Shown here piece by piece: positions 12,042 through 59,130 of a DNA stretch of 64,000 nt (positions are counted from its first letter, which is position 1; each line of letters opens with the position of its first letter). Made by a program: the position numbers and the translations under genes. Source of the stretch: Eledone cirrhosa (Eukaryota). Under the pieces are notes generated by a model. The model was not told where the DNA came from. It saw nothing but the letters and a program-made list of their open reading frames with translations, and did not search any database. Location of the stretch: positions 26,536,001 through 26,600,000 of the forward strand of contig OZ024742.1 of the NCBI GenBank assembly GCA_964016885.1, read 5' to 3'.

Positions 12042-12075
12042 GTGGTCTTTCCCATCTTTTCCACTCCATTTCAAC

Positions 12076-15000
12076 ATGACCTCACTCAGAATAGGCAGCA
12101 TAAATACGCGTGGCTTGGGGTCGTCATGGAAGCAGGGCCACCTGCTCATCACCTCAGGTCACTAAACATAGATGTAGTGGCCATCAGCGAAACCAGAATC
12201 TCCGAAGCGCGGGCCTTCGCACCGATCTTCGGCGGCTACGATGTGTACGCATCTCCCAGCCGTCCTGGATCCGGGGGGGGGGTAGGGGGTAGGAGTTGCT
12301 GTGCTTTTTCGGAGAGGTTTGGATCTCGCCATACGGGCTATCTACCTGGACCCAGAAGGTAAGTTGGTGGTGCTGGACTTGACCAGAGGAGACGGGCAAG
12401 CTTTCAGGCTAGTGGCCGTCTATGCCCTGACAGGAGCAGGGCGGCCTGATTTCTTCCGGCGTCTGGAGACCTTTCTTGGAACGTCCCGTTCTTTAGTGTT
12501 AGTGAGCGACTGGAACGGGATCTTCGATGCACGCTGGGACTGTGTGGGATTAGCGGGTAGGGGAGGAGGGTGCAATAGCCTCACCAAGCTGCTCAGGTAT
12601 TTTGAACTGTCTGACAGGCACCGATTGAATTTCCCGAATGTGCCAATGTGGACTTGGACAAATCGTATAGGGTTATCCAGATCATATCTAGATAGAGTAT
12701 TTTGTAGGGAAATAGATAGGTCTAGCATAGGCTGTCCTCAATTCAAGATATTCAGCTACACGGACCACAAATTCGTGATCTGTGTGCTTGACTTAGATAG
12801 GGTTCATAGACGAGGACCCGGCTACTGGAAGCTAAACGAGTCCTTACCAGCGCGCAAGGCCTACAGAGACCGTATTAGAGAACTGTTTAGCGGGCGTTGA
12901 CGGGGGCCATCGTCAACAACAAGTGGTGGTTTGCTCTAAAAAGAGCGATTAGAATAGAGTCCATTAGGTTTAGTAAGGCTTTAGCAATAGAGAAAAATAG
13001 AGCAGAAGGAGAATTAGTTAGAAAATAAGACGAGACGCTTAGCAAAGGCATCGCGACCGACGTATTTGCGGCGAAATTGGCCCTTGACCAATTCTTCAAT
13101 GCTTAGAACGAAAGCTGCGTTGTCAGAGCTAGGGTGCTTGCTCTGAGACACGATGGGACGAAAGCCGTTCAATGGGCCCGAGTGGCGGAGGCGCGTCGTG
13201 GCAACAAAACCACGATCCGGTCTTTGGTAGACCACGACGGGCGCATGCTACTCGATCCCGGGCAAATGTGTGAAGCTTTTCAGCGACACTTCGCACAGCT
13301 GTTCTGGGGGCAGCTGCGGGCCGGATCGACGGATGGGCTTTAGAGTCTACCTCGATGGACTGCCACGGCTCTCGGCCACTGAGTCGGAGTGTTGCGAAAA
13401 AGCCGATAACAGCCGTTGAAGCACGGGAGGCCATGACTGGCTGCACAAGGCGTAAATCGCCTGGTTTGGATGGTCTGCCCTATGAACTTTACGTACAGAT
13501 GCCAGACTTATTCGGAGGACTCTTGGCGGACGTCTACTGCAACTGGCAACAAAACGGGAGAATTCACAGCTCCGTGAGCCGAGGAGCGGTGGCACTGCTG
13601 AGAAAGGATCCGAACAAGGGGGATAACATAGATAATTTCAGGCCCATAACTCTGCTAAACACAAAGTTCAAGATTTTGGCCAAGGTGCTAGCAAATAAGT
13701 TGGCGCTTGTCGTTGGTGGTCTGGTGGGAGAGGCGCAGATTGTGCCATTTCCGACAGATCCATCCACGACAACCTCCACCTCATGCGATACATCGTAGAG
13801 AGGGTAGCTAGGAAACCTGGCACGGGTGGGTCCCTGATCAATTTAGATCAGTCGAAAGCATTTGATAGGGTTGAAGGCGGTTGGCTTTGGGCCCGTCTTC
13901 AGAGGCTGTATCGTTGCCATGCACAACGACATCTGCTCTGTGGTGAGAGTGAACGGTCACCTTTCAGAACCGTTCAACATCATGCGTTCTGTCCGGCAAG
14001 AATGTCCACCCCCCTCGTCCCTCCTGTACGTATTGACTCTCGACCCATTACTGCACAAACAGGAGACGTTGAGGGGCGTCCCGCGCGAACTAGGATGCGG
14101 AAGATCCGTGTCAGCATTTGCGGACAATGTCACCGTAGTGGTGTCGAACGCCAAACACATCGAGGCGAACGGCACTACACTAAGAGAATACGAAGCGGTG
14201 ACAGGAGCAATGATCAACCAGGAAAAGTCAGTGGACCTGCAGCTCGGCACCTGGAGAGGCAGACCCATGCCGTCCAACAGTGTCGTCGGGCGCTGGACGG
14301 ACTGACCGGTTAAATTGCTAGGGCTCTGTTTCGGTCCAGACCGCCAGACGGGCAAAAACTGGAACGAGGTGACGAGCAGGGTGGCTTCTCTCACCCAGAA
14401 ATGGGCGGAGAGGAAGCTAACGCGTACATCGTGTCCGTTATCTGCTACCGCCTGACCGTCGTACCTTGTCCTAAACCTCGTCTGACTGCGCTGGAGCGTT
14501 TGCTCTTTCGCTTTTTGTGGAAGGGACGCGCTCCGATGGTCAGGAGGTCCATCTGTTGTCAACACCCGCTACGTGGAGGGCTGTGCATGCCGTGGCTGAT
14601 GATGCGCAGACACGCGCTCAGGCTATGACATCTCCACCTCTTCCTCGACGGTGATCAGGTGTGGTGGCCGTTTGCTAGACGCGTCTTTCCCAACTCGTTT
14701 CCTTGACGGAGCTGCAGTCCTGGGTCAAGCAAAGAACGAGAGGGAGCGCTTGGTGACTGGAATGTCTTCAGGCGCTCACAGCCATCGACCAATTGGGCAA
14801 TGTGATAGTCGGAAACTCCACCTCGGCTTTCTATAGAGGATTAGTGGAGGGGAAGAGCGACGACGTACTTGGGGAAACTCTAGGCCTCGACGAGAATCAA
14901 CTAGCCAATCTCTTCGGAAGAATTTCGTGCCGGGGCTTATGGTCAACGTCCAGAAATCCCTGGCCTGGCAGTGCTACCTAGGAGCCTTGCCAGTTCGGCA

Positions 15001-15454
15001 GAAACTCTACAGGAAAGGAGGTGCCGAAAGTCGGGAATGTCCGAGATACGCGCAGGGCGAGGAAACCGTCCTGCACGTACTCGTCCAGTGTCCGACACAT
15101 GCTGACTTGTGTGTTTATGTCGAACACCTGCTGTCGCGTGTAGGACGGATACGGCTATCAGCTGAGTCCATCGTGAGGATTGCCCCGCCCACTTCCTTTA
15201 GTCGGGAAGGGTAGGCAGTTTTTATCTGTCTGGTGGCCATGGCGAAAGAGATATTATGGTGGGCACGTTTGAAAGGTCTGAAGACGAGCATTTACCTCTT
15301 CGGTGATGCCCTGATTGATTTTTTCAAATTTCATTTGAAAAGGAAAATCAGGGTAGAGAGGGAAGTGCTCTCTTCCCAGCATTTTGTTGAAAGATGGGTG
15401 AGAGAAGCAAGAATGTCCCGAGTGAATGGGCCTACTCTGAGTATGTGTCTCTAA
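12076..15454 (+). pseudogene. Tx1-A ORF2: AP endonuclease, reverse transcriptase, C-terminal zinc finger
   Basis: SET, DWN, SYLDR, TDH, GPGYWKLN, KSPGLDG, FRPITLLN, LDQSKAFD, FADN, CPR..ETVLH..C; many frameshifts. Confidence 0.92.
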
Positions 15455-17255: not shown

Positions 17256-17264
17256 CTTACCAAT

Positions 17265-20200
17265 ATGGCCATATTAAGAGTAGGAAGTTTAAATGTTCGC
17301 GGCCTGGGGTCACCCTGGAAGCAGGGTCGCCTGCTCAACGACCTCCGGTCGCTGGAAATGGATGTGATTGCCGTAAGCGAGACCAGAATTTCCGACACGC
17401 GTGCACTAGCCCCCATTTTCGACGACTATCAGATCTTCGCATCTGTTAGCAGGCCGGGAATGGGGGGTGGGGTGGCAGTGCTGCTTAGGAAAGGACTGGA
17501 TCTCGAGGTAAGGTCGATCCTCCGGGACCCTGACGGTAAGTTGGTGGTCGTGGATGTGAGCAGTAGCGAAGGTGGTGCCTTTAGACTGCTGGCCGTCTAC
17601 GCCCCTACAGGGTCCGGACGACCTGACCTCTTTAGGCGCCTGGAGACCTTTCTGGGTACGTCTCGCCCTTTACTGTTAGCGGGGTACTGGAATGGCATCT
17701 TAGACGCACGCTGGGATTGTGTGGGAGTAGCCGATAGGAGCGGGGGTGCAAAAGCCTCAAGCACCTACTCAGCCAGTTCCAACTGTCTGACAGGTATCGA
17801 CTAGATTTCCCCAATGTGCCAGTATGGACATGGACCAACCGAATGGGGTCATCTAGATCGTATATAGACAGGATCTTCATTAGGAAAATAGATAGAAATA
17901 GTGTGGGCTGTCCACTTTTTAAAACGGTCGCCTATTCAGATCACACATTTGTGATCTGTACGGTCGACCTAAATACAACGCGTAGGTTAGGACCGGGTTA
18001 CTGGAAGCTGAACATATAAGGCTTACAGGGACCGAGTCAACAATTTAGTTAAGCAAAAGTTGACAGGGGAGATCATCAACAACAGATGGTGGGGGGCTCT
18101 CAAAAGAGAGATTAGAGTAACTTCGATACAGTTCAGCAGAGAACTAGCGTTAGAGAAAAATAGAAAGGAGGGGGAGCTGGTAGATAAGTTAGACGAGGCT
18201 ATTTGTAGTGGCATCGCAACTGACGTGCTAGCGGCGAGATGGCATTAGACCATTTCTTCAACGCCAAACACAAAGGTTTGTCAGAGCTAAGGCGCGTGCG
18301 CTGAGAAACGAGGGAACTAAAGCTTTTCGATGGGCCCGCGTGGCGGGGGCGCAGCGTGGTAATAAAACCACAATTCGTTCTTTGGCGGACCGAGACGGAC
18401 ACGAGATAAGCGATTCCAAGCGGATGTGTGAGGCCTTTCGCCAGCACTTTGCTCGGTTGTTCAGGGAGAGTGGCGAGTCAGAGAGAGTAGCGGATTTCAG
18501 TCCCTACTATGACGGCTTGCCGCGCATCTCGACGGTCGACGCTGAGCGCTGTGAAAGGCCGATTACTTCAGCCGAAATTCAGGACGCCCTTGTCGGCTGC
18601 ATGAGGCGCAAGTCACCCGGTTTGGATGGCCTGCCCTACGAGCTTTACGTAAATATGCCAGACTTGTTCTCCGAACTCCTCGAAGCACTCTACTGCAACT
18701 GGTAGCAGAATGGGAGTATTCCCAGTTCTGTGAGCAGGGGAGTGGTGACGCTGATAAGGAAAGAAAAGAACAAGAGGGATACATTAGACAACTTCAGGCC
18801 CATAACTCTGCTCAACACAGAGTTTAAGATTTTGGCCAAGGTCTTAGCAAAGAGATTGGCGCTTGTCGTCGAGGATTTGGTTGGGGAGGCGCAAACATGC
18901 GCAATCCCAGCCAGGTCCATAAACGACAATCTCCACCTCATGCGATACATCATAGAGAGGGTAGGGTGTAAACCTGGCTTCGGTGGGGCACTGATCAATT
19001 TAGATCAATCGAAAGCATTCGATAGGGTCGACCATCGGTATCTGGAGTTTGTCCTCAAAGCAGCTGGCTTCGGCCCTGTCTTTAGAAGCTGGATCGTTGC
19101 AAGGCACAGCGGCACACGCTCGGTGGTCAAGGTTAATGGCCACCTCTCGGAACCATTTCGGCTCTCCCGATCGGTCCGTCAAGGGTGCCCTCTCTCTTCC
19201 CTTCTGTACGTATTGACTCTCGAGCCTTTACTGCGGAAGCTGGAGCTGTTGCAGGGCATCCCGCTCGAACCGGGACGTGGAAAGGCGGTGTCGGCTTATG
19301 CGGACGACATCACCGTGATGGTGTCAAACACCTTAGAAATCGAGGTGGTCGGCACCTTACTGAAGGAATATGAAAGGTTGACAGGAGCCAAACTTAACCC
19401 GGAAAAGTCGGTGGGCTTGCAGCTCGGAACCTGGAGAGGCAGGCCCATGCCGTCCAACAGCGTCGTGGGGCGCTGGACGGACGACCGGTAAAGTTGCTCG
19501 GGGTTTGGTTCGGACCAGACCTCCAGGTGCAATAGAATAGGGACGAGGTAACGAGCAGAGTAGCCAGTCTCACCCAAAAATGGACTGGGAGGAAGCTATC
19601 ACTGAAAGGTCGCGCGGAGGTGGCGAATGCGTACATCGCGTCCGACATCTACTACCGCCTAACCGTCGTGCCTTGCCCCCGCCCGCGCCTCGTCAAGTTG
19701 GTACGGCTCCTCTTTAAATTCTTGTGGAGGGGACAAGTTCCGTTGGTGAGGCGGTCCATCTGCTGCCAGCACCCTCTACGCGGAGGGCTGGGCATGCCGT
19801 AGCTAATGATGAGCAGACATGCGTTGAGGCTGCGACATCTCCAGATATTCTGCCTCAATGGTGAACAGGTGTGGTCGCCGTTTATCTGACGGGCCTTTCC
19901 GCAGCTCATTTCTTTGACTGAGCTGCAGTCCTGTGTCAAGAAGAGACCGAGGCTGGGTGACTGTCACCTGGAATGTTGCCAGGCACTCACTGCCCTCTAC
20001 CAAGCGGGCAATGCGATCAGTGGAACCTCCACTCTCGAGTTCTATAGAGGATTAGTGGTGGGCAAGTGCGATGACGCACTCGGAGAAGCTTTGGGCCTCG
20101 ACGAAGTCGAACTGACCAGTCTGTACCGGAGGACTTTTGAGCCGGGGACGATGGACAATTTCCAGAAATCCCTCGCTTGGCAGTGCTACCGGGGGGGGGG

Positions 20201-20675
20201 GGGGGCACTGCCGGTTCGGGATAAACTCTACATGCACGGAAGTGCTGTCAGACGGACCTGCCCAAGATGCGCACAGAACGACGAAACCGTTCTGCACGCA
20301 CTTGTCCAATGTCCGTGCATTACTGACTTGTGGAGTTATGTCGAACAGCTGCTGTCGCGTGTGGAACGTATCAGGCTATCGGCCGAGTCCATAGTGAAGA
20401 TCGAGCCGCCACCTTCCTTAGGTCAGGAAGAGCAGGACATTTTCCTCGGTCTGGTGGCAGTTGCAAAAGAGATTATATGGTGGACCAGGTTGAAAGGACT
20501 AAAGACAGACACTTTTCTCTTCGGCCAATCCCTCATCAACTTCTTCAAGTTTCACCTGGAAAGGAGCGTGAGGGTGGAGAGAGAAGTGCTGCACCCCAGT
20601 ACATTTGCTAAAAGGTGGGTGAATGTGGCGAAAATGGCTCGTGTGAATGGGCCTACTCTGACCATGCGCCTATAG
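17265..20675 (+). pseudogene. Tx1-B ORF2 (APE-RT-zinc finger), disrupted
   Basis: SLNVRGL, SETR, SDH, RQGCPLS, YADD, CPRC..ETVLH..C; several stops and frameshifts. Confidence 0.93.
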
Positions 20676-20951: not shown

Positions 20952-21010
<59 letters not shown>

Positions 21011-21032
21011 TCATAAATATATATATATATAT

Positions 21033-21129
21033 ATTCATTAGTTAAGCAAAACAAGACCACCAATTTCACAAGGAAAACATTATTAATAGATTGTCAACAT
21101 ATTTTAGTTTGATGTAAGGAGTGTAGAGA

Positions 21130-21130
<1 letters not shown>
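21033..21130 (-). mobile_element. Distal part of the inverted pseudo-LTR of the PLE at 26922-29240, split off by the R4/Dong array
   Basis: Matches 546-638 and continues colinearly at 26922 (gtccgtttacaattg), as in the uninterrupted copy at 638-680. Confidence 0.85.
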
Positions 21131-21190
<60 letters not shown>

Positions 21191-24100
21191 GGGAAGAAGA
21201 CGCACGAGGTGGTAGAAGGTCATGAAATCGCTCCCGTAAGTTTTGAATTTTTAACATATTTAAATCATTTGTGAAATAACAACTCTTAGTACAAATGCTA
21301 CGCAAAGCATCCGGCTTGAGCCCCAAAAAATTCGGACCCAAAATATATTGTTATAAGGCTCAAATATTCAAATATTCAACTTTGTATTGTACATTGTATA
21401 TTCAAAGAAGAAAATGGCTGTAAATGGAAGAAGAACCCCCCTCCCTCCTCTGTCTACGCTATATAGAACAGCCAAACAACACCAATCTCACCAACACCAG
21501 AAACTAGATACAACACCTACCCCATCACCTCTCTGTGTACACTAAACACAACAGCCAGATAACGGCAATTTCACCACCACCACTCACTACTGCCATCATT
21601 ACCACCACTATCCCATCACCGCCGCCACCACTCCTTCATTGCTGCCACCGCTACAACACCATCACTACAGTAATACGATCACATCACCACCACCACTGCC
21701 TCGGTATCGACATCACCACCACCACAGTCTCAGTATCGATACCGCCGCTACTGTCTCCCACATCTCCCCGCCGCCACCACTATTCCCCTGTTAACTTGAG
21801 AGAGAAAGGGGAAGGTGGCGGTATCACTAGACAAGGGAGAGGCTAGCAAAAGATATAAATAGATTGACTTAGTGACCTGGCCACGGCCAAACGTCAACAT
21901 CAACAACTATGGGACTGCTGGCTCACCCCTTCCACACCAACAATATAAAAAGCCCCGACACCACCACCGACATAGCCAACAACAATAACAGCCAACTACA
22001 ACAAAAAGTATATTATATTATTGTAATGCACTGGGTGATTGCTGGCCTTGTGCCTGGAGTGGAGACAATTATTAATAATTTCATTCTTAAGCCACGCAAT
22101 GCTCACATTAAGGAACCACTCATGATAATAACAATTTAAAAAAAACAACAAAAGAAAAACCCCGTGACCAAGAAATACCGGGATGGCGGCTGGCGGGGAA
22201 TAGCCGTGTCTCTAGGGGAGAACGACCCCTCTAGTCTTGGTTGACACTCGTTCTAGAAGTGGTAACACGAAATGATTACCCCTTGGCGGTTAAGGATAAA
22301 TGGCGACAAAATAAAGTAAATGTCTAATGATAAAATCTCATACCGGATCGGCCGTCACCCGGGTAAAAAAGGGCCGCGTCCCTCAGAGAGGAACCAGACT
22401 GGGGTCGAAAAATCAGCTAACGGTTCAAACCTTCCCATCACTTCGGAGCTGCAGACCTCCCATAACCGGAATACTCCTACTATTGGCCCTCCATGCTCAC
22501 CACCAAGAAATCCAAAGAAAAAGAGAGAAAAATGGTCAAGGGAAGATAATAAAGAAGTCCTTGAGGCTTTCTACACTGCCATGTACTACCCATCAAATAC
22601 ATCGAATACAGAACAGACATATATCAACTGGAAAAAGAAACATCCCGAAAACAGAGGCTATATTGACAGTAACAAACTAGCCAATATTCGAAGAAATATT
22701 GTAAGAAAAAAGTTACTAACTGATATAGAAATTGATCAGATCAAGCTATTAGCACAAAGTCAGCGAAGAGAAAATGAAACATGTGTCAGTGAAAACGAGG
22801 TCAACTGTAACACTTCGAATCCCAGGGTTGGGGCGGAATCACTGGCAACAGAACAAATTAAAGAAAGGATCGAAAAAGTGGAGGGAGTGCATGCTCAGGA
22901 TGAAAATCCAAATGAAAATAATGAGATCGTAAATGATAAAGAAATGAATGAGAATGAACTTGCCAACTTGAAGGATGAAATTATGATCGAATGGATGAAA
23001 ATGAAAGAATCTGACATGGGGCAACGAGACACCCTCCCTAAGATCCAGAACTCCAAACAGAACCAAAAGATAATACACAAGACTGACATAATTCTCAAAA
23101 ACATTATCATCACAAACAAACTAAACATTACTGATTTAAATCATCTCTATTATGCATCGGCTAAAGTCACCACTCACTTATGTGGAGTGAAGATGAAAAA
23201 ACAAAGGAATTCCCACAAGAAATCTACTTGGCAAGAGAACATCAATCGCCAAATAAACCTTCTCCGATCTGACATTGAAATTTTAACAAACTATAAAGTA
23301 GGTGAACATGTTAAACAAACTAAACTTAGAAAATTGAAAAAAAAGTACAGTATAAAATCAACATGTGACATAGACATGCTGATAGAAATAATGAAGCAAA
23401 AAGTGTCGGCCAAAGCTGCTCGTATAAGGCGCTTTGAAAAACGATCTAGATTCTATAAGGACAATAATATGTTCAAAAACAACCAAAGAAACTTCTACAG
23501 AAAAATTGGTAAGTCAACAATAACTGCTAAATCAATACCACCCAAGGAGGAAGTGCAAGAGTTCTGGGAAAAGATCTGGGGCGAAGAAAAAGTTCATAAC
23601 ATACATGCCCCATGGATAGACAGACAAATGAAAGATACAGCTCACCTTGAGGAACAAACATGGGAAAATATAACAGTTGAACAGTTGCGCGGGCTCTAAG
23701 AAAAGCCAGCAAATGGAAATCCCCAGGAAAAGACAAAATACAAAACTTTTGGATAAATGCCTTCACAGAGTCTCATGAGCTGTTAGCCCAACTTTACAAT
23801 GAAATAGTTAAGGAGCCAGAAAAGATACCTTCATGGCTAGTTAACGGCATTACATTCCTGCTTCCGAAGAATGATGAGACAAACAATCCCAAAAATTACA
23901 GACCGATAACTTGCTTGACAACAATGTATAAAATTTTAACATCAGTCCTAACTGAATACACATATGACCACCTGATAACAAATGACCTATTTCCCATTGA
24001 GCAGAAAGGGTGTAAACGAGGCTCATATGGCTGTAAGTCTCAGCTTCTGGTTAACAAAATGATACTGGAAGATTGTCATAATAGACACAAAAATCTATCG

Positions 24101-26113
24101 ATTGCTTGGATAGATTATAAAAAAGCATCTGATAGTTTGCCACACAGTTGGATTGAAAAATGTTTAGAGATTTTCAAAGTATCCCCCGTTGTCAGGAGGT
24201 TTTTGTCATTCAGTATGAAGACATGGAAAACGACACTCCTTTTGAATAATGAAACAAAATCACTGGAAGCTGGAGAAGTTAATATTAATTGTGGAATTTT
24301 TCAGGGTGACTCTTTATCACCGCTTTTATTCTGCATCGCACTTATACTTTAAAAGTAAAATACTCAATGAAACAAAACATGGATATAAAGTCTATGACAA
24401 AACCATTAATCACCTGTTCTACATGGATGACCTGAAACTATTTGCAAAAAATGATGAACAATTGCAAGGGCTATTATCCACTGTGGAGCAGTTCAGTGAT
24501 GACATTAAAATGGAGTTTGGACTAGATAAATGCGCCAAAGCAACGTTCACCAGAGGAAAGCTGCTAAAGAGTTCAGACATTAATCTTGATCGGGGGAACG
24601 TGATAAGAGAACTTTATCAAGAAAAAACTTACAAATATCTAGGTGTTTGTGAAGGAGACGGAATCAAGCACTCGACAATGAGGGAAAGGATAAGGAAGGA
24701 ATGTTACCGCAGAGTAAGAGCAATCTTAAGAACGGAATTGAATGCAAGGAATAGGATCGATGCCATAAACACGCTTGCCATACCAGTAGTAACCTACAGT
24801 TACAATGTCATCAACTGGTCAAGCACAGAGATCCGTAGGCTCGATACAAAAATTCGAAAATTCTTAACCATGCACAGAATGCATCACCCTGAAGCAGATA
24901 TAGATATAATATATCTCACTAGGAAAGAAGGAGGACGTGGGTTAATCCAGTTAGACATTGCGTTGAAAACTGCAACAATTGGATTATCTACATATCTAAG
25001 GGTATCACATGATTGGATGATCAAACTCGTTTTGAAACACGAATGCATCAAAAGATCATATTCCATTACAAAAGATGCACAAAGATACAGTAATGGACTA
25101 CAAGTTTCAGAAGTCCCATTTACTGCTGAAATGGAAAACACAGAAAAAGCAAAGCAGGTAAAAGTAACTGCAAAGAAAGAAATGCTACAGAAACTGGCTA
25201 AGAAATGGCAAGAAAAGCCTCTGTATGGAAAATACCCAGAGCGAGCTAACAATCCTGATGTTGACAAAACTTTAACCCATCAGTGGTTGGCATCCTCTGG
25301 ACTGAAATCGGAGACTGAAGGACTGTTTATATCGGCACAAGATCAGTGTCTGCCAACAAAAAATTACCAAGCCAACATAATAAAAAATGGGTGCAGCCCA
25401 TTATGCCGTGTATGCAAAAAACAACCAGAGACCATTGACCATATAATTTCAATGTGCAGTCCTATAGCTCCAACCGAATACCTAAACAGGCATGACAGAG
25501 CTGCACAATACATACATTGGATAATGTGTAAGCATTTTGACCTGCCCCATCAAAAGAATTGGTGGGAGCATCAACCACCTCCCATACTTGAAAAAGGTCA
25601 CATCTCAATCTTGTGGAACTTTAGCATCCAAACAGACCGAAAAATAGATAAAAACAGACCTGATATAATACTGAAAGACTTTCAAAAGAGGGTATGCCTG
25701 CTAATTGATATGTCTGTTCCAATAGACAAGAATGTATCTATAAAAACATTTGAAAAATTGAGCCAGTATAAGGATCTGGAGATAGAAATTGGAAAAACGT
25801 GGAAATTGAGAACTAAAACAATACCAGTGGTTGTAGGCGCTCTGGGAATGATACCTAAGGGGTCTAATGATTACATATCGCAAATCCCAGGAAACCCGCG
25901 TATAGGAGAAATACAAAAGATAGTACTAATGGGAACTGCCCATATACTAAGGAAGATTCTGTCAATATAAGTACATCACAAGTCTAAACACTAAAGATGC
26001 ATGTGTGAATATGTATGTTCTTTCTTGAACATGGCGGACCTTGTTGTCTCTTGAGGTCACTGGTTGTGAGTTGGTGATAACTCGTATGAACATAAAGCAA
26101 GATAAATGCAACT

Positions 26114-26114
<1 letters not shown>
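21191..26114 (+). mobile_element. R4/Dong-clade RLE non-LTR retrotransposon, family R4-A, full length, in (TAA)n
   Basis: (TAA)n at 21131-21190 and 26115-26171; 1.1 kb leader; single long RT-RLE ORF. Confidence 0.9.
22320..25970 (+). pseudogene. R4-A polyprotein: RT, CCHC zinc knuckle, restriction-like endonuclease; frameshifts near 23695 and 24345
   Basis: WKSPGKD, NYRPITCL, EQKGC, GIFQGDSLSPLLF, YMDD, CRVC..ETIDHI.S.C, RHD, RPD..D..K..Y.DL. Confidence 0.92.
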
Positions 26115-26170
<56 letters not shown>

Positions 26171-26173
<3 letters not shown>

Positions 26174-26892
26174 GCTGCGCAGGAGCAGGCCCTCAAAACG
26201 AAGTGGTTGAAGCACCATATCTACAAGGAGGAGGCTAGCCCACTGTGCAGAATCTGTGGAGAGAGAGAGGAGACTGTGGCTCACATTGTGTCCGAGTGTA
26301 AACACCTAGCCCAGACCCACTATAAGGGCTGGAGACACGATGTGATGGGCAGGGTGATCCACTGGCACCTGTGCAAAGTAAACAATTTACCACATTCTGA
26401 GAAATGGTATGAGCATAGGCCAGAGGCGGTGATGGAGAACAATCAGGTGAAGGTGCTGTGGGATTTTAGGATACAGACGGACAAAAAACTGGAACACAAT
26501 AGACCTGACCTGGTGGTTGTGGACAAAGAAAAAAGATCGTGCCTGATTGTGGATGTGGCCTGCCCGTTCGACACGAGAGTGCAAGAGAAGGAGAGGGAGA
26601 AAATTAACCGATACCAGGACCTAAAGTGGGAGGTGAAAAGGATTTGGAACTGCCATGAAGTCAAAGTGATCCCGATTGTCATAGGCGCACTGGGGACTAT
26701 CTCCAAAGGTTTCCAGGGATGGTTAAAGAAAATCGGCCCCTTCACGCTTTTTGGAACGCTTCAAAAGGCATGCTTGCTTGGAACAGCAAGAACCCTCCGA
26801 TACGTCCTGAATATCTGAGGCTGCAGGTAGTGGCTTGATATTCAATCCAACGGACTTTCCAGTTAACCAACATCAATGACTGAGATTCAAGG
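26171..26892 (+). mobile_element. 5'-truncated R4-B copy (zinc knuckle, RLE, 3' UTR)
   Basis: Near-identical to 55413-56133; flanked by (TAA)n. Confidence 0.93.
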
Positions 26893-26921
26893 AATAACAA
26901 CAACAATAATAATAATAATAA

Positions 26922-29237
26922 TGTCCGTTTACAATTGTTAAACTACTTATTATAATGTTTCAGGATCAAATGATTATAGATCACTATTGATCTGGTTCAG
27001 TTGAAAATAATTAACTTAGGTAAAAATAGAGCAGCTCATCGGAACTTCAAAGTGAGTATAAATTAAAATAAGGAAAGAATGTTACATGAATGTAATCTTC
27101 CATATATTGGTATTTCACTATGGTGTCTTGCGTATATATATTATCTGCCATTACTGCTCTGATGACTGCCGGTGGGTGGGTAGAGTGTGGGCTAATATAT
27201 GTAAGTATTTCACCTGGTTTCACCATCAGAGCAGTAATCAAATATATCTCGTATAGGATCTCCATGCTATCAGCAAATGACGAAATATTTATAAACCATA
27301 CGGCATATTATAATAAGGCTCTTTCTGAATCTAGTTATGAACAGTCCATTTGACACATACATAAAAGCCATAACACAGCACTTCACCACAACCATAATAA
27401 ACTTAGCACTAGAACTAGAAATACCTTAGCATATAGCCAGATTCGCCAGAATGTTATCAGTAACAGCACCTATGTAGGGAACCGTAATGGTGGAACCGGC
27501 CTGCTTCCCACTCCAAGGAGCAAACTAAAAATCAACCCTAGAATAGGAATAAGCAATGGGATGACAAATAACAAATGCCAAGGTAATAATAACCCTATGA
27601 AGGCCCCTACCAACTCCACTAGAACCCCTAGAAGGAATAGGTCTAGAAATATCCCCTGGCTTAACCCTCCATTCTCATCTAATCTAGCCACTAGTATCCC
27701 TAAACGCTTCTTATCTATCCTATCTAAACATTCACCCCCCCCCCCAACCATAGATACTACAAACTATTTAATATAAACAACATTAAAATCTCATTCTCCA
27801 CAACACCTAACCTGGCTAGCCACATCGCATTAACTTACGATCGTAATAAGCTAATACATTATAACTCCCACACCGCGGTACCACCACACCATCAAATACA
27901 CCACCCCACTACACCAATACTTACTCTAGTAGCACCCATCTAATCCTTCTAGCACTGACCTACCGCTTATTTTAAACTACCCTACTCTCACTAACCGCAG
28001 AAATAACTGCAACTGCCGTTACCCTAATGCATGCCAACTAAATGGACATTGCCTGACACCCAATATAGTTTATAGGTGCACAGTTAAAACTGCTTCGCAT
28101 ACCAGCTCCTATATTGGCTCTACCTCTAACCCTTTTAAAGTACGCTGTAACGCGCACTCTTTTTCCTCCCGAGACCCTAACAACAGATGTTCGACATCTC
28201 TAGCTAGACTCATTAAAAACCTTAAATTAACCAACATTGAACACTCACTAACATGGGATATCTTGGTTTGGGCCCAATCGTTCAATGGACGAAGAAACAC
28301 TTGTGACCTCTGTCTTTCGGAAGCATATTACGTAACTCTATCATGACCTCTACCGATTAACGGTAGAACGGAGGTAACTATTAGCTGTCAACATCGAAGG
28401 GCTAATTCCTTCGCCAACAGAATATTTGACCCAACATAGTCATCTAGCCCCATTTTTACTTGAGTTAATAAGTTAAATAGTTATAGCAACTTAGATAATT
28501 ATAAGTTACATTGTCTCTCAATTAAACAATTTAAAAAATTAGCAATTCTTAACTATAAAATACCCCAAACTTATAATTTCTCGAGGAGTCACTTCCCCTG
28601 AAACGACGCTCTAATTAGTAAGGTAAATATGTCCATTTGTGGCCATCTGGTTACCTATAGGCAGATCTCACACAATGTAGCCTCGACAGAAGAATACTGC
28701 TCGACTATGGCAGGCAATAGATATACCCAGGACACCATAGTGAAATACCAATATATGGAACATTACATTCATATAACATTCTTTCCTTATTTTAATTTAT
28801 ATTCATTTTCAAGTTCCGATGAGCTGCTCTATTTTTACCTAAGTTAATTATTTTCAACTGAACCAAATCAATAATGATCTATAATCATTTGATCCAGAAA
28901 CATTATATGGAGTAGCGAAACAATTGTAAACGGAGATAATTATTATTAATATTATTATTATTATTCTCTACACTCCTTACATCAAACTAAAATAGTTGAC
29001 AATCTTTTAATAATATCTTCGTTGTGAAATTTGTGGTCTTGTTTTGCTTAACTAATGAATATTTCCAGCTCTGTGCACCTAATCTCTGCATGAACCCAGC
29101 AACCTAGTTGCCTTCTTCTGCATATTGCACATTATGCACATGCCTTTACGCTTTGGCTTCTAACTAATTCACTAATCTCTCCTCTCCTATCTCCTCTCCT
29201 ATCTCCATCTCTCTCTTTAAGATTGGTTATTCTTGAA

Positions 29238-29240
<3 letters not shown>
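26922..29240 (+). mobile_element. Naiad-type Penelope-like element, 5'-truncated, with inverted pseudo-LTR at the 5' end
   Basis: RISMLSANDEIF..YYNKAL, WLNPPFS, and CNCRYPNACQLNGHC..IVYRCTV..YIGST..FK.R...CDLCLSE..CQH..FDPT* ending 28439; pseudo-LTR 28700-29240; inverted copy 26922-27150. Confidence 0.88.
28803..28934 (+). ncRNA. Hammerhead ribozyme family H2 (long stem II)
   Basis: GUU-CCGAUGA-GCUGCUCU..GGAGUAGC-GAAA-CAAUU-GUA^AACGGA; the inverted copy at 26923-27045 has a mutated GAAA. Confidence 0.65.
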
Positions 29241-29312
<72 letters not shown>

Positions 29313-29598
29313 AAAAAAAATAACGAAACGAAATTAAATTTCGTTTCGTTTGTAACTCACTTTTGTATGACTGACGCTTAAACAATTAAGTTAAAAATGT
29401 ACATCTGCATACTGAAATACTAGTATGCATATGAATACACACACGTATACATATGTAGATGTACCAAGTCTTTCACTGGTTACTTTACTGTGAGTATCCA
29501 GCTATTCTGTATGTAAACACACAGACAAACCGGTTTTTAGAGTCATACTGGTTTTTGAGGAAACACCTTTCCTCTATTTTCCAGAAAGCCAGACAAGG

Positions 29599-29643
29599 AA
29601 TATTGAACTAGTTTCGTTGTTGTTACAACTCATCAGCAATATT
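29599..29643 (-). ncRNA. Minimal type I hammerhead ribozyme (family H3)
   Basis: AAUAUUG-CUGAUGA-GUUG-UAACAA-CAAC-GAAA-CUA-GUU^CAAUAUU; perfect 7-bp stem I; palindromic stem III AACUAGUU. Confidence 0.9.
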
Positions 29644-30064
29644 TACCTATCTACCGGCCTTTCTGGAGAATCGTAAAAGCACATATCGTTATATGCTTTT
29701 TCTATGAAAATTAGTAGTGGGCAGACCAATTTGCATAGAGTGTGAGTACGCACCGGTTCAACGGAGACGATAAAAACAAATAACGAAACGAAATTAAATT
29801 TCGTTTCGTTTGTAACTCACTTTTGTATGACTGACGCTTAAACAATTAAGTTAAAAATGTACATCTACATATGCATACTGAAATACTAGTATGCATATGA
29901 ATACACACACGTATACATATGTAGATGTACCAAGTCTTTCACTGGTTACTTTACTGTGAGTATCCAGCTATTATGTATGTAAACACACAGACAAACCGGT
30001 TTTTAGAGTCATACTGGTTTTTGAGGAAACACCTTTCCTCTATTCTCCAGAAAGCCAGACAAGG

Positions 30065-30109
30065 AATATTGAACTAGTTTCGTTGTTGTTACAACTCATC
30101 AGCAATATT
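30065..30109 (-). ncRNA. Minimal type I hammerhead ribozyme (family H3), second copy
   Basis: Identical to 29599-29643, 466 bp away. Confidence 0.9.
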
Positions 30110-30575
30110 TACCTATCTACCGGCCTTTCTGGAGAATCGTAAAAGCACATATCGTTATATGCTTTTTCTATGAAAATTAGTAGTGGGCAGACCAATTTGC
30201 ATAGAGTGTGAGTACGTACCGGTTCAACGGAGACGATAAAAACAAATAACGAAACGAAATTAAATTTCGTTTCGTTTGTAACTCACTTTTGTATGACTGA
30301 CGCTTAAACAATTAAGTTAAAAATGTACATCTACATATGCATACTGAAATACTAGTATGCATATGAATACACACACGTATACATATGTAGATGTACCAAG
30401 TCTTTCACTGGTTACTTTACTGTGAGTATCCAGCTATTCTGTATGTAAACACACAGACAAACCGGTTTTTAGAGTCATACTGGTTTTTGAGGAAACACCT
30501 TTCCTCTATTCTACATATGTATACGTGTGTGTATTCATATGCATACTAGTATTTCAGTATGCATATGTAGATGTC

Positions 30576-33191
30576 CGGTGAGGAATACGTAGAGGTGCCG
30601 TAGCCTTAATGCGTGTTTACGCATCATTAGCCACGGCATCCCCAGCCCTCCTTTCGAAGGGTGTTGACAGCAGATGGATCTCCTCACCATAGGAGCCCGC
30701 CTCTTCCAAAGGAATTGGAAGAGCGCGCGCTCCATCTTGGTGAGGGTTTCCCTTGGGCAGGGCACTACGGTCAGGCGGTAGTAGATGACGGACGCTATGT
30801 AGGTGTTCGCCAACTCCGCCCGACCTTTCAGGGATAGATTGCAACTGGCCCACTTCTGGGTCAGTGCAAACACCCTGTTCGTAACCTCCGCACAGTTTTT
30901 CTCCACCTGGAGGTCCGGTCCGAACCAGACCCCGAGCAACTTCACCGGGCCCTCCGTCCAGCATCCGACGACGCCATCGGAGGGCATCGGTCTGCCCCTC
31001 CACGTGCCGAGTTGCAAACCGATCGACTTGTCCCGGTTCAGCTTAGCCCCTGTGAACTTTTCGTACTCCTCCAGTAAGGTGCCGACCGCCTCGATTTCGG
31101 AGGCCGTCGACACCATTACTGTCACGTCATCGGCGTAGGCCGACACCGCTTTCCGCAATCCCGGTTCCAAAGGGATGCCCTGCAACAACTCCATCTTCCG
31201 CAGTAGTGGCTCGAGAGTCAACACATACAGAAGGGAGGAGAGAGGGCACCCTTGTCGGATGGACCGCGCGATTTTGAACGGCTCCGAGAGGTAGCCGTTC
31301 ACCTTGACCCTAGAGCAGATGCGGCTGCTGTGCATGGCAGTGATCCAGCCCCTGAAAACGGGTCCGAAGCCTGCCGCCACTAGCACCGCATCCAGGTAAC
31401 CATGGTCGACCCTATCGAACGCCTTAGATTGATCCAAGTTGATCAGAGCCCCACCAAAGCCGGGTTCGTTCCCACCCTCTCTATGATGTATCGCATGAGG
31501 TGGAGGTTGTCATGGATGGACCTGGACGGGATAGCGCATGTCTGCGCATCTCCCACCAGGTTGCCCACGACAAGCGCCAACCTCTTTGCTAGCACCTTGG
31601 CCAAAATCTGTAAGTCTGTATTTAGCAGAGTTATGGGCCTGAAGTTACTTATTTCGTCCCCCTTGTTCTCGTCCTTCCTCACTAGCGTGACTACGCCCTT
31701 GGTCACAGTACAGGGAATTCTCCCGTTCTGTTTCCAGTTGCAGTAGACCGCCTCGAGGAGATCGGGGAACAAGTCCGGCATAGCTAGATATAATTCGTAA
31801 GGAAGACCATCGAGACCCGGGGATTTGCGTTTGCCGCATTGGCTCAGCACGTCCTCTATCTGAGCGGCCGAAATCGGCTCCTCGCAGGACTTCGCCTCCC
31901 TGTCCGAGAGGCGCGGCAGGCCGTCGAGGTATGGACCGAAGTCCACGTTCCCAACCGGCTCCCCGCCCCTCCCGAACAGTCGGGCAAAGTGCCTTTGAAA
32001 GGCCTCACACATCTGCTTAGGCTCAAGAATCGCCCGTCCATCCAGATCTCGCAAAGACCGGATGGTGGATTTAGGACCACTGTTGGCCTCTGTCACGCGG
32101 GCCCAGCTAACAGCTTTGGTCCCCTCGTTCCCTAGAGCACGTATTTTACTTCGGACAACGCAGCCTTCGTGCTTCGCGTCGAAAAACTGGCTCAAAGCCG
32201 TTCTCGACGCTAGCACTCTGGCCACGTCGCCGCTTCTAATTGCCTCTTCTACTCTATCTATTAGCTCCCTTTCCTTCCTATTCCTATCCGCAGCTAGAAC
32301 CTTACTAAATTCTATCGAGACTACTCTAATCTCTCTCTTTAGAGATACCCACCACCTGCTGTTGACGATCGCTCCAGTCAACCTTTCCTTAACTAACGTA
32401 CTAATCCGATTCCTGTAGGCTCTACTTGCCGGCAAGGACAAGTTGAGCTTCCAGTAACCGGGGCCCTGTCTATGAGTTCTGTCAAGGTTGACCATGCAGG
32501 TCACTAATTTGTGGTCTGAATAGCCAACCATGCGCATTTTTGGACAACTTAAAAAGTCCTTATCCTTAATTCTAACTAAGAACCTATCTAGGTACGACCT
32601 AGATGATCCGCTACGATTTGCCCAAGTCCAGGTTGGCGCAGTCGGAAAATCTAGTCGATATCTATCGGCCAGGTCAAATCGACCGATTAACCCTTTGAGG
32701 CTATTACACCCCACTCTATCGGGGCAGGCCCCTACGTAGTCCCAGCGTGCATCTAGGATACCATTCCAGTCCCCCACTAATAGCAAGGAGCGGGACGTCC
32801 CTAGAAAAGTCTCCAGACGATGGAAGAAGTCCGGCCGCATTGACCCGAAAGGGCCGTAGGCGGCTACCAGCCTAAACGCTCCGCCTTTACCACTGCCAAG
32901 GTCCAGAACCACTAGTCGACCCTCCGGGTCCAAATGTACCATCTGTGTTGCGAGACCCAAATGTTTTTGCAGCAGAACGACAACTCCACCCCCACCTCCG
33001 GGCTGACAGAGAGATGCGTGCATCTCAAAGTCATCAAAGGTGGGGGCCAGCTGTCGCACGTTGCTGATCCGGGCCTCGCAAATAACCATCACATCTATAC
33101 GTTGTGACCTGAGGTCATTTAGAAGCATTGCTTGCTTCCAAGTTGAGCCCAGGCCACGCGCATTTAAACAGCCTACTCTTAGCATAGCCAT
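30576..33191 (-). pseudogene. Tx1-C ORF2 (APE and RT), one frameshift near 31445, C-terminus missing
   Basis: CLNARGL, GDWN, SYLDR, SDH, KSPGLDG, DQSKAFD, RQGCPLS, YADD. Confidence 0.93.
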
Positions 33192-33215
33192 GTTGGTGGT
33201 GAAGAGAAAAGGCAC

Positions 33216-34767: not shown

Positions 34768-38103
<3,336 letters not shown>

Positions 38104-49218: not shown

Positions 49219-49754
49219 AGTCCATAGTGAAGATCAACCCGCCGCCTTCTTTTGTCCAGAAGGGCAGGCAGTTTTACTCTTTCTGGTGGCAATAGTGAAA
49301 GAGGTTGTATGGTGGACCAGGTTGAAAGGACTGAAGAGAGACACTTTTCTCTTCGGCCAATCCTTCATCAACCTTTTTAAGTTTCACTTAGAAGGAAGGT
49401 AAGGATGGAGAGAGAAGTGTCCCCCCCCCCCAGTACATTTGCTAAAAGGTAGGTGAATGTAGCGAGAATGACCCGTGTGAGAGGAGCTACTCTCATCATG
49501 CCTGTAGGTAGGGGAATTTGAGGAGAAGAGAGGTGTCCTTCCCAGGTGCTCTCAAAGCGTCGAGTGGTTCAGGATTGGTGGGGTACCTGAGTCAAACCTG
49601 GGTGGTTATCCCCCCTATTGGAGAATTTTCCTTGTATTTTTATTATTTTGTTATTGTTATTTATTTTGTTTACACCTTATATATGTAAAACCCCACTGTA
49701 CCTATCTTTTGTATTGTCCCCTACATGTCGGCCCTTGTGGCCAATAAATGAAAT
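49219..49754 (+). mobile_element. 3' fragment of a Tx1-B-like LINE
   Basis: Aligns to 20386-20952 (WWTRLKGLK, 3' UTR, AATAAATGAAAT); no (ATT)n follows. Confidence 0.9.
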
Positions 49755-51223: not shown

Positions 51224-51292
<69 letters not shown>

Positions 51293-51295
<3 letters not shown>

Positions 51296-54200
51296 CGCAC
51301 GAGGTGACGGAGGTCATGAAATCGCTCCCGTAAGTTTTGAATTTTTAACATATTTAAATCATTTGTGAAATAACAACTCTTAGTACAAATGCTACGTAAA
51401 GCACCCGGCTTGAGCCCCCAAAAAATTCGGACCCAAAATATATTGTTATAAGGCTAAAATATTCAAATATTCAACTTTGTATTGTACACTGTATATCCAA
51501 AAAAAAATGGCTATAAATGGAAGAAGAGGAACCCCCCCCTCCTCTCCCCTGGCTACACTATATAGGACAGCTAAACTCACCAACACCAGAAACTAGATAC
51601 ACCACCCACCCCATCATCTGTGTACACTAAACACAACAGCATTTTCACCTTCACCGCCACCGCTCACTACGGCCATCATTACCACCACTATCCCATCACC
51701 GCCGCCAGCACCCCTTGACTCCTTCACTGCTGCTGCCACCGCTACAGCACCATCACTACAGTAATACGGCTCAAATATTCAAATATTCAACTTTGTATTG
51801 TACACTGTATATCCAAAAAAAAAAATAAAATGGCTATAAATGGAAGAAGAAGAACCCCCCCCCCCCTCCTCTCCTCTGGCTACACTATATAGGACAGCGA
51901 AACTCACCAACATCAGAAACTAGATACACCACCCACCCCATCATCTGTGTACACTAAACACAACAGCATTTTCACCTTCACCGCCACCGCTCACTACGGC
52001 CATCATTACCACCACTATCCCATCACCGCCGCCACCACCCCCTGACTCCTTCACTGCTGCTGCCACCGCTACAGCACCATCACTACAGTAATACGGTCGC
52101 ATCACCGCCACCACTGCCTCGGTATCGACATCACCACCACCACTGTCTCAGTATCGCCAACGCCGCCAATCTCTGCTGGCTACCACTTCCACATTATAGA
52201 ATTCCAACTACTAACAAAGAGGAAGGCATCAAAATATATAGATAGACTCAAAAGAAAAAAGAAAAAACAAACAACAAAAGCAGCACAGCAACAACAGTAA
52301 AAAACGAGAAAAACAGAGAAAAACAAAAACAAAAAAAGAAACCCCAAAAACGTAAAGAAAATAAGAATGAAGAGAGAAGCAGGCGGACGGACAGAGAAGA
52401 GGGGGGAAAAAGTAAAACTTAAAAAACAAAAACTAAGTCAGACATTCGAATACTACATTACAATGAAACTTATGCTTATTCATTTTTGGGGCCCTTTCTG
52501 CCCGTGTGTTTGTTTGTTTATGTGTGTCCGTATACAGCGTGGTGATAATGCCACACAAGGGCCAAGTGGGATGGCGGATCCACAGATGGCTATGTAAACA
52601 TACATTCGCCAATCCTCGATAAGAGTGTTTAAATATCGAACATAAACAGTTCGAATAACGGTGAAATGGAGACTAGAACGTCATGTGACAGACTCTCACC
52701 CAACAGGTGCCCCCTGGCTCAGCAGCAGGAACCTGACTGTCAACCAAATACTGCTGATGTTGGAGGAAGAAGAAGAAGGAAAGGGGCCAGAACCAACTGG
52801 ACGAAAGAATTGAATAGAACTGTTATGCAATGCTACCTGAAAAGTAACCCCAAGGAGAGGGGCTACAGGAGACGGATGCATAACATCTGGAACGAGATTG
52901 GTTTATTTAAATTAGATGAACAAAAATTGGCAGGGCAGGCTCGGGTAATAAGAACTAATGGGTGGATAAGCGAGCTGGAACTGGAGGAACTGAGCAGAGA
53001 GAATGGCTTGGAGATGGCGGGTGTAGTATGCCAGACAAGCGAGCCGGCGGGAAATGAAGGTGAGGAGGTCCTGAGAACGGAGGAACCACCCGAAGCAGAC
53101 AATGATCTGAATACTGAGATAAATAATACCTGGAACAGAGATACGGCCACTGAGGGGATGAATGCTGACGGGCTAGGACAAGATTCGGTTGACATCCTAA
53201 ATTTAGTGGTAGATGAGTTGAACAATGATAGTGGGAGACCTATGAACCTAAGATTTGTAGACAGGAAAAAGTTAAAAGAAACAACAGCTAAGGTAAACAA
53301 AGTCATCCCATACCTTGAGGCGAGGAGTCTTCACCAGTGCAACAATATCCTCAAAGCAACAGCAAATACGGTGAGGAAACTACTTGGTATAAAAGCGAGA
53401 GGAAACAACAGACAAGAAAGAGCAGAGCCGTGGTGGAGGAAGCGACTGAGTGGTCAAATCGGGGAAATGAGAAATGACATAGGAAAGCTTGAGTCACTAC
53501 TGAATGGGACACTAAAAAACATAGGCACTAAAAATAGACTGGAAATAAAATACAAAACTAGGAGTAAAAAGCTAAATATTATCATAGAGGAATTGAAGCA
53601 ACGCATTGTAGCAAAGAGTGCCAAAATCAGGCGATACGAGAACAGAGTCAGTCAGTATAAACAGAACCGCATGTTCGACAACAACCAGAAGATGCTGTTT
53701 GGACAGCTTGAGGGGAAAGAAAGAGGCAACGACTTGATCCCTGGGGCGGAACAAGCTAAAACATTCTGGAGAGGAATATGGGAGCAGGATGTTAGACACA
53801 ATGCCCAGGCGGGGTGGATTGAGACAGTACAGATGGAGATCGGTGAGCAGGCACAGCAACAGACTGATTTGAGTATCACAGTTGAAACTCTTAAGGGGCA
53901 AGCCAAAAAACTAACCAACTGGAAATCACCAGGCCCAGATGGTGTGCAGGGGTATTGGATTAAACATTTAACATCCCTCCACCCGAAGCTGACGGCCATG
54001 TTCAATGACTGCTTGGTGTCGGGTGAGGTGCCAGAGTGGTTGACAAAAGGTACCACAGTTCTGATAATGAAAGACCGAATCAAGGGTAATGATGTCACCA
54101 ACTATAGACCTATCACATGTCTGCCCGTAATGTGGAAACTGTTGACGAGCATTGTGTCTGAGGAAATCTACCATCACCTCCACACAAACAACTTGTTGCC

Positions 54201-56133: not shown

Positions 56134-56145
56134 AATAACAATAAC

Positions 56146-56190
<45 letters not shown>

Positions 56191-56192
<2 letters not shown>

Positions 56193-57521: not shown

Positions 57522-57560
57522 AATAACAATAACAATAATAATAATAATAATAATAATAAT

Positions 57561-59108: not shown

Positions 59109-59130
59109 TAATAATAATAATAATAATAAT

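Follow-up and report, generated by a model that had tools for sequence, protein, structure and literature searches.

We analysed a 64,000-nucleotide stretch of the Eledone cirrhosa genome (contig OZ024742.1, positions 26,536,001 to 26,600,000, forward strand; hereafter the window), which carries on its plus strand two full-length non-LTR (non-long-terminal-repeat) retrotransposons, A (21191-26114) and B (51294-56147), that share a 5' leader. Each has a (TAA)n run in front of it and is the first member of a short array whose other members are truncated A and B copies. Copies from the rest of the genome divide the two families into subfamilies A1 (the window type), A2 and A3, and B1 (the window type), B2 and B3; A1 occurs in a long form and in the shorter form of the window. 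The layout, from untranslated regions (UTRs) to open reading frames (ORFs) with a reverse transcriptase (RT) and a C-terminus of the restriction-like endonuclease (RLE) type, is as follows.

21131-21190, plus strand: (TAA)20 target run 5' of element A1; an element-free version of this repeat lies at 532-668.
21191-21653, plus strand: shared leader, the part that appears to derive from A, to have evolved on B bodies and then to have returned (B2 type); likely promoter.
21654-21767, plus strand: part of the shared block native to the B UTR and present in B3's own remnant (seen in B3, B2 and long A1 copies); it points to a B-to-A direction.
21760-21771, plus strand: join to A sequence in the short A1 window copy, which arose when the long A1 form subsequently lost internal sequence.
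21772-21834, plus strand: A UTR up to the end of the putative old A-to-B capture (B3 junction at ~21834; 28/30 B3 copies).
21835-21883, plus strand: A UTR stretch past the B3 junction, with older homology to the B UTR (reached by 0/500 shuffles in both testable pairs).
21884-22319, plus strand: A-specific ORF-proximal UTR, including a short piece of another repeat at 22023-22077.
22320-25970, plus strand: family A ORF with RT, CCHC zinc knuckle and RLE-type C-terminus; two frameshifts in the window copy.
25971-26171, plus strand: A 3' UTR and (TAA)19.
26172-26921, plus strand: 5'-truncated B copy, head to tail behind A1, with a TAA end (99% to 55414-56145).
51225-51293, plus strand: (TAA)23 target run 5' of element B1.
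51294-52203, plus strand: B1 shared leader with a tandem duplication of ~316 bp; 52203 corresponds to the last B base captured in long A1 copies.
52204-52665, plus strand: B-specific UTR, in which 52221-52248 is a decayed homolog of the A stretch 21835-21883.
52666-56059, plus strand: family B ORF with RT, CCHC zinc knuckle and RLE-type C-terminus; one frameshift in the window copy.
56060-56192, plus strand: B 3' UTR and (TAA)15.
56193-59129, plus strand: truncated B (56193-57535) and truncated A (57560-59108), head to tail behind B1, with TAA runs between them and at the end.

The initial annotation had described a near-identical leader of ~550 bp in front of strongly different ORFs and 3' UTRs, with no (TAA)n tail separating leader from ORF. 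The leader match is real and lies far above chance, with 21194-21555 aligning to 51289-51640 (E 8e-129) and 21640-21756 to 52058-52174 (E 8e-40). "Near-identical" overstates it: over the first 560-580 nt, identity is 92.4% of 527-538 ungapped columns and ~84% when gaps are counted, with 147 of 158 columns identical over the first 155 nt. The window B copy lacks 9 nt of the 5' tip, and its leader spans a longer stretch because of the internal duplication (51445-51769 versus 51761-52096, 94%). The remainder of that description holds. The proteins share 36% identity (418/1168; intact copies from other loci), and at the DNA level the two window ORFs, both frameshifted, align only over two pieces of ~50 nt. 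Base composition shifts from 39.5% A and 19.3% G in the A ORF to 33.4% A and 28.3% G in the B ORF, and the 3' UTRs are unrelated in sequence. Neither window copy has a run of four or more TAA units between leader and ORF.

Intact copies at other loci encode single long ORFs of 1216 amino acids (A) and 1130 amino acids (B). RVT_1 was found above its cut-off in both families, the best PDB matches were R2 proteins, an ESM Atlas search returned RVT_1 clusters only, and nearly all homologs were proteins without a name. At the C-terminus of the intact A and B proteins we read by eye a CCHC knuckle and a restriction-like endonuclease motif; the zf-RVT match in the ORF scan was weak and below cut-off, and the four ORF pieces scanned gave no match to endonuclease families, including the APE domain. 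A TAA run lies within 40 nt upstream of 135 of 155 leaders and a GAA run in 17 of 155; TAA also stands at truncated 5' ends and at the 3' ends of copies. By single-ORF anatomy and TAA target, A and B appear to be of R4/Dong type. They resemble this clade (Bombyx mori Dong; Ascaris R4) in the single ORF with RT, the C-terminal CCHC and RLE-type motifs, the (TAA)n target and the precise 5' end. Dong has been placed in the R4 lineage with TAA repeats upstream (PMC3774820), and in one octopus Dong-R4 is listed among the recently active long interspersed nuclear elements (LINEs; PMC13282606), which we cite as context only. Three further sources served as general background (PMC9115989, PMC4640811, 10.1101/2025.02.02.635956).

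We then asked how the leader is distributed over the 3.0 Gb genome, using samples that consist of the first matches by position, mostly from contig 1 and partly overlapping. Exact patterns matched 1121 times for a leader 24-mer, 1622 times for the B ORF start, 947 times for the A ORF start and 829 times for TAA plus the 5' tip. Among the first 30 B ORF starts, 21 had the leader upstream and nine were truncated onto TAA inside the B UTR; the first 30 A ORF starts divided into 23 with the leader and seven truncated onto TAA. None of these 60 starts had any other 5' end, so the possibility that most full-length copies lack the leader did not materialise: the full-length copies examined carry it. 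In the opposite direction, 63 of the first 70 leader matches had an ORF-start motif within 2.2 kb and six further ones were B, so that 69 of 70 lead into an A or B body; the last stops after ~100 nt without a tail. All 30 of the 5'-tip matches lead into an A or B UTR, and 16 extra tip matches, chosen because the lists did not explain them, comprised 14 A or B elements and two internally deleted copies. Genome-wide, both A and B genuinely start with the shared block, which is not a free cassette. The window A copy represents a minority form, as the A1 type accounts for only 4 of the 23 A copies with a leader in the position-ordered sample. As a side observation, (GAA)n runs or duplicated 5' tips lie directly 5' of the leader in eight copies (L007, L009, L012, L016, L021, L024, L059 and L072), possibly through RT slippage on the element's own first bases.

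These counts bear on an earlier suggestion that the leader is a separate, non-autonomous TAA-targeting promoter cassette driving whichever element lies downstream, which should also occur as solo leaders with their own tails. One such structure exists: in L184 (contig 1, ~90.399 Mb; L184:342-720), ~345 nt of leader are joined to the last ~40 nt of the A 3' UTR and a TAA tail, in a form resembling the short internally deleted elements (SIDEs) of Drosophila. Its junction had no second copy in the best 40 of 2013 candidates, so it is apparently single-copy; it and L186 are the internally deleted single copies. Moreover, nearly every leader match continues into an A or B body, each subfamily has a fixed junction, and copies are 5'-truncated within the leader just as within any UTR. 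We therefore consider a free cassette very improbable.

Comparison of leader and ORF phylogenies, together with mapping of the breakpoints, gave discordant trees and breakpoints shared by whole subfamilies. In the ORF trees, A1 and A3 are nested within A2, and the order in B is roughly B3, B2, B1. The leader tree, built from 55 copies over 324 columns, intermingles A and B copies; monophyly of the A leaders was rejected by the approximately unbiased (AU) test (p-AU 1.5e-70; 26 of the 55 leaders, picked to span the groups), and a clade of A1, B2 and B1 leaders was supported at 98/96, with weakly supported branching within it. Mean leader p-distances were 2.2% for A1-B2, 5.4% for A1-B1 and 13.0% for A1-A2, the last against an A1-A2 distance of 2.7% for the ORF and 4.2% for the A-specific UTR. 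Majority sequences show no A1-B2 difference at 341 leader positions and 31 A1-A2 differences at 317, compared with 3 of 404 fourfold ORF sites between A1 and A2 (p=6e-9). The leader does not diverge in step with the coding regions it precedes: A1-B1 and A1-B2 leaders are close, and the ORFs of the two families are unalignable as DNA. Near-identical pieces in contigs labelled as other organisms were left out as outgroups.

The leader also changes fast within each family. On the A2-A3 stem, 21 of 310 leader positions differ against 7 of 405 fourfold sites (p=7e-4), and on the B3-B2 stem 22 of 322 against 7 of 401 (p=9e-4), a rate about four times that of fourfold sites on both stems; between B2 and B1 there is no excess (13/330 versus 9/402, p=0.2). 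This could reflect relaxed constraint, constrained fourfold sites or, for A3, an outside donor. In the last case, a third family or a host sequence would have supplied some leader versions, such as that of A3, and part of the apparent speed would be import. The distance between A3 and A2 leaders, with no intermediates in the sample, fits such a donor. However, no third ORF family stood behind the 70, 30 and 16 sampled leader matches (overlapping samples; no genome-wide look for A3-type leaders was made), and the B3-to-B2 intermediates sit on B bodies, so we think an outside source improbable. The same rates speak against the view that selection kept the leader from a common ancestor: the first 55 nt, conserved across all subfamilies, are the sole point in its favour, whereas the leader outpaces fourfold sites in both families. 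An assembly artefact is contradicted by subfamily junctions that recur at tens of loci with different flanks and by raw reads from a 2026 DNA run with the same species label, which contain the TAA-to-leader join. Ancestral conservation and artefact together have, in our judgement, a negligible chance of being right. Separately, B2 and B3 ORFs (L316-L330 and others) differ at 28 of 1127 second codon positions against the 7 of 401 fourfold sites, a hint of fast B protein change after the capture.

The junctions suggest that the leader moved between the families at least twice, in opposite directions. In B3, an A2-type leader of ~700 nt is fused at one point to B's own remnant in 28 of 30 copies, the other two being truncated there, and this junction has 221 exact matches in the genome. 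In long A1 copies, a B2 leader with the start of the B-specific UTR gives way, across a 4-nt microhomology (AATT), to A2 sequence that begins at about leader position 400. Of 29 exact copies of this junction, all 20 examined lead into the A UTR and 17 of the 20 have a B2-type leader upstream. The original B-to-A junction is kept in this long form and not in the window A copy, which is a shorter derivative of it. Leaders on B bodies form a graded series (L195, L193, L187, L220, L192) that starts at the old A2 type and ends at the B2 type, and this stepwise change, together with the B-specific UTR in long A1, points to B as donor in the recent transfer. For the older one, A is favoured as donor because B holds nested leader layers and A2 only one. 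Beneath both lies a still older layer of homology: the B3 remnant aligned with the A UTR in 25 of 25 pairs, each scoring above all 40 shuffles. The remnant pair that we inspected in full covers A positions 399 to 800, reaching 49 nt past the B3 junction, and the stretch beyond the junction alone exceeded 500 of 500 shuffles in both testable pairs, the third pair having no anchor. The order that these layers suggest is an old A-to-B transfer and a later, recent B-to-A transfer, two or more family-founding events over a third, older layer. Short A1 copies carry three 5' tip variants that also occur in B and may record further small exchanges. Splicing was considered as a route for the joins and rejected, as no GT or AG splice signals were present at the junctions read.

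This history modifies the proposal of a recent 5' UTR capture or swap. Capture itself is upheld; a single recent event between the two window copies is not what the data suggest, given at least two founding transfers in opposite directions. We also considered a simpler sequence of events, in which two leader versions arose within A and a single capture brought the A1 version to B. The leaders of A1 and B2 are indeed as close as copies of one subfamily, but the old A2-type leader is already present in B3, the intermediates are found on B bodies, A1 is nested within A2 in the ORF tree, and the B-specific UTR in long A1 copies contradicts a single capture directly. We regard it as highly unlikely.

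What the leader does is a separate question. Bombyx mori Dong self-cleaves through a ribozyme like that of hepatitis delta virus (HDV) at its 5' junction (PMC3774820). Here, an HDV-like fold starting at the 5' junction was present in 0 of 69 full-length copies, by a descriptor that had no positive control on a known ribozyme, and a genome search with RF01787 gave no match in the genome or in the controls. Leader positions 1-230 fold worse than shuffles (z +2.1), the ORF-proximal UTRs gave z +0.2 and -1.0, and alignment folding yielded at most one compensatory pair per region. In the ORF-proximal B UTR at ~52505-52640, an HDV-like descriptor fit occurred in 6/6 B1 copies, and the alignment fold there had z -3.2 with one compensatory pair; we did not accept it as a ribozyme, as 0/21 B2 and B3 copies and 2/40 shuffles fit. 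Rfam matches at E up to 10 on both UTRs (four and five) all fell below the gathering score and were rejected as chance. Because the 5' end is fixed and lacks RNA structure, we think the leader probably serves as a promoter.

The setting in which such transfers could take place is common in this genome. Over the first 118 Mb of contig 1, 158 gaps separate neighbouring ORF starts. Of these, 34 were shorter than 10 kb (2.1 expected), including 33 between copies on the same strand and 18 that were mixed A/B. Elsewhere on contig 1 (131.99-132.02 Mb), four A ORF starts on one strand at a spacing of ~5.27 kb form a tandem A run. Both remnants start at a (TAA)3-4 run inside the old leader, at about position 390-400, where copies also become 5'-truncated. 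A long TAA run at this internal site gave five matches, three of them copies truncated exactly there and two intact leaders with a longer run. At one locus on C14, a full B1 is followed by (TAA)n and then by A from position 390, a layout that would yield long A1 by removal of the B body; at a second locus of this kind the upstream B is truncated.

As the route, we lean towards an RT jump on a read-through array transcript, with a weight set by judgement that stays a little below even. A copy truncated at the internal TAA run would lose its promoter, lie behind a full copy of the other family and be read through from that neighbour's leader; on the read-through transcript, the RT would reach the TAA run and from there switch to the UTR of the neighbour. 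As the 3' end and ORF-proximal UTR would stay family-specific, the chimera would keep its own protein and tail and could found a subfamily. Template jumps by an RLE-type RT in vivo are described for R2 (PMC3414825). A jump between separate RNAs, again weighted by judgement, seems unlikely.

The same history could also have come about at the DNA level, by a break in (TAA)n between array neighbours repaired by deletion with short microhomology. Mixed arrays are common, a precursor layout is present, internally deleted single copies exist (L184, L186), both remnants begin at a TAA run that the element's endonuclease would presumably cut, and this route is favoured for R2/R1 hybrids (PMC3414825). 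On the other hand, it requires a deletion of ~4 kb that leaves a competent copy, a need for which DNA-level recombination was discounted for rodent L1 (PMC3600994), and the duplicated tips and (GAA)n at 5' junctions suggest an RT that slips and jumps readily. We hold it possible, yet less likely than a jump along an array transcript. All three routes are listed for L1 (PMC3600994). The template switching of the initial annotation is thus plausible, although DNA deletion fits the product equally well and the two are not distinguished. A further variant is nested insertion, in which a 5'-truncated A entered a B UTR and transcription from the B leader then mobilised leader plus A. The same junction would be expected, and one leader with an expanded internal TAA run does precede a full B1 (L331/L340). 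However, L340 is rearranged and shows no clean nested insertion, the B site is not a TAA run, and among long A1 copies whose 3' end could be read, 0 of 26 had the rest of the B UTR behind them (29 examined, by eye). We give this variant little credence.

Taken together, we read the shared block as the 5' leader of two TAA-targeting families, passed from A to B and later back from B to A, likely through joining of array neighbours and likely as a promoter, and we put the probability of this reading at about 0.8. Several points weigh against it. The direction of the old event rests on B having two nested layers and A2 one, with no pre-capture B (0/30 B3 copies) or outgroup species seen, and an ancient tandem duplication in B, later captured by A, is an unlikely but conceivable alternative. 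Low support within the A1 and B2 clade makes any count of later tip exchanges tentative. The promoter role is a prediction, Bombyx Dong has a 5' HDV-like ribozyme instead, and our ribozyme descriptor is unvalidated. No founder locus turned up, and in the precursor layout the full-length copy upstream belongs to B1, which is younger than the B2 donor. Finally, the route is not readable from the sequence, an RT jump and a DNA deletion being indistinguishable in their products, and DNA recombination was judged likelier than a template jump for the R2/R1 hybrids (PMC3414825).

Other repeats accompany the two arrays. The piece at 22023-22077 lies in the UTR of all A subfamilies and is 84% identical to 48305-48251 on the opposite strand; TAA-ended copies of this repeat are frequent A and B insertion sites. 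An inverted-arm repeat of ~550 bp (540-1104, 20977-21158, 26892-27156 and 28706-29255) hosts the A1 array in its TAA run, with 532-668 as its empty-site version. A LINE with APE and RT domains, presumably Tx1/L1-like, is present as three divergent copies (69-72%) and a 3' fragment (12072-15453, 17261-20674, 30580-33197 on the minus strand, and 49219-49754); its 3' ends, A-rich and with (TTA)n tails, are found repeatedly next to A and B. On the minus strand, a frame of 676 aa without stops (35219-37249) combines an RT-like part with a GIY-YIG-like C-terminus; we take it to be Penelope-like. Direct repeats of ~740 bp (98%) with an inverted 65-bp end occupy 29310-30574, beside the minus-strand LINE.

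Replacement of a 5' UTR is known from other retrotransposons. Mammalian L1 families recruit and re-recruit 5' UTRs by recombination, with 11 replacements estimated in mouse (PMC3600994, PMC5872511), and share with our case a leader tree discordant with the ORF tree and a breakpoint common to a subfamily. In L1, exchange is among families of mostly one lineage, and lineages that coexist for long differ in their 5' UTRs; here, one homologous leader is passed both ways between two families whose proteins are 36% identical and which amplify together. According to PMC5872511, L1 lineages of mammals are found together only when their 5' UTRs differ, the explanation not yet being validated experimentally; in this non-mammalian genome, A1 and B amplified with the same leader. 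The R2/R1 hybrid SIDEs of Drosophila (PMC3414825) likewise join a 5' module to the 3' part of an unrelated element with the same target, in tandem arrays, but they are non-autonomous, one-way and carry a ribozyme. The chimeras described here retain a complete ORF, grew into a subfamily that is major (B) or substantial (A1), and arose by transfer in both directions; as their leaders run into whole ORFs, they differ from SIDEs, which have no coding capacity and consist of a multi-copy 5' module plus a 3' end. The Pr77 hallmark of trypanosomatid L1Tc/ingi is also a 5' module common to the families of a clade, although it is a short conserved ribozyme attributed to common origin (PMC4035085), whereas the present leader is ~600-700 nt long, fast-evolving and horizontally exchanged. 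From Dong it differs in that Dong self-cleaves, while no HDV-like fold was found at the junction here within the limits of the descriptor. The swap itself is known from L1 and R2/R1 hybrids; what sets the present case apart is a repeated, two-way swap between distant coding families with a shared target. In the literature searched, which did not extend to Repbase entries, subscription journals or supplements, no description of R4/Dong families exchanging leaders in both directions came up.

Tentatively, and with clearly less confidence than in the history itself, the exchanges may be part of a standing promoter relay, in which the shared target produces mixed arrays, the internal TAA run acts as acceptor, and a fast-evolving leader in conflict with host silencing is repeatedly handed across families; this view counts three nested layers plus later tip exchanges. 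If true, two families would share one transcriptional niche cooperatively, against what has been put forward as a rule for mammalian L1. A repeat library that classifies elements by their 5' ends will merge unrelated families. As junctions, intermediates and a precursor layout are all present in one genome, the route by which LINEs acquire 5' UTRs, whether RNA jump or DNA deletion, becomes testable, as does the question of whether coexisting families need different promoters. Our findings also suggest that a portable promoter may have taken the place of the 5' ribozyme in some R4/Dong lineages.
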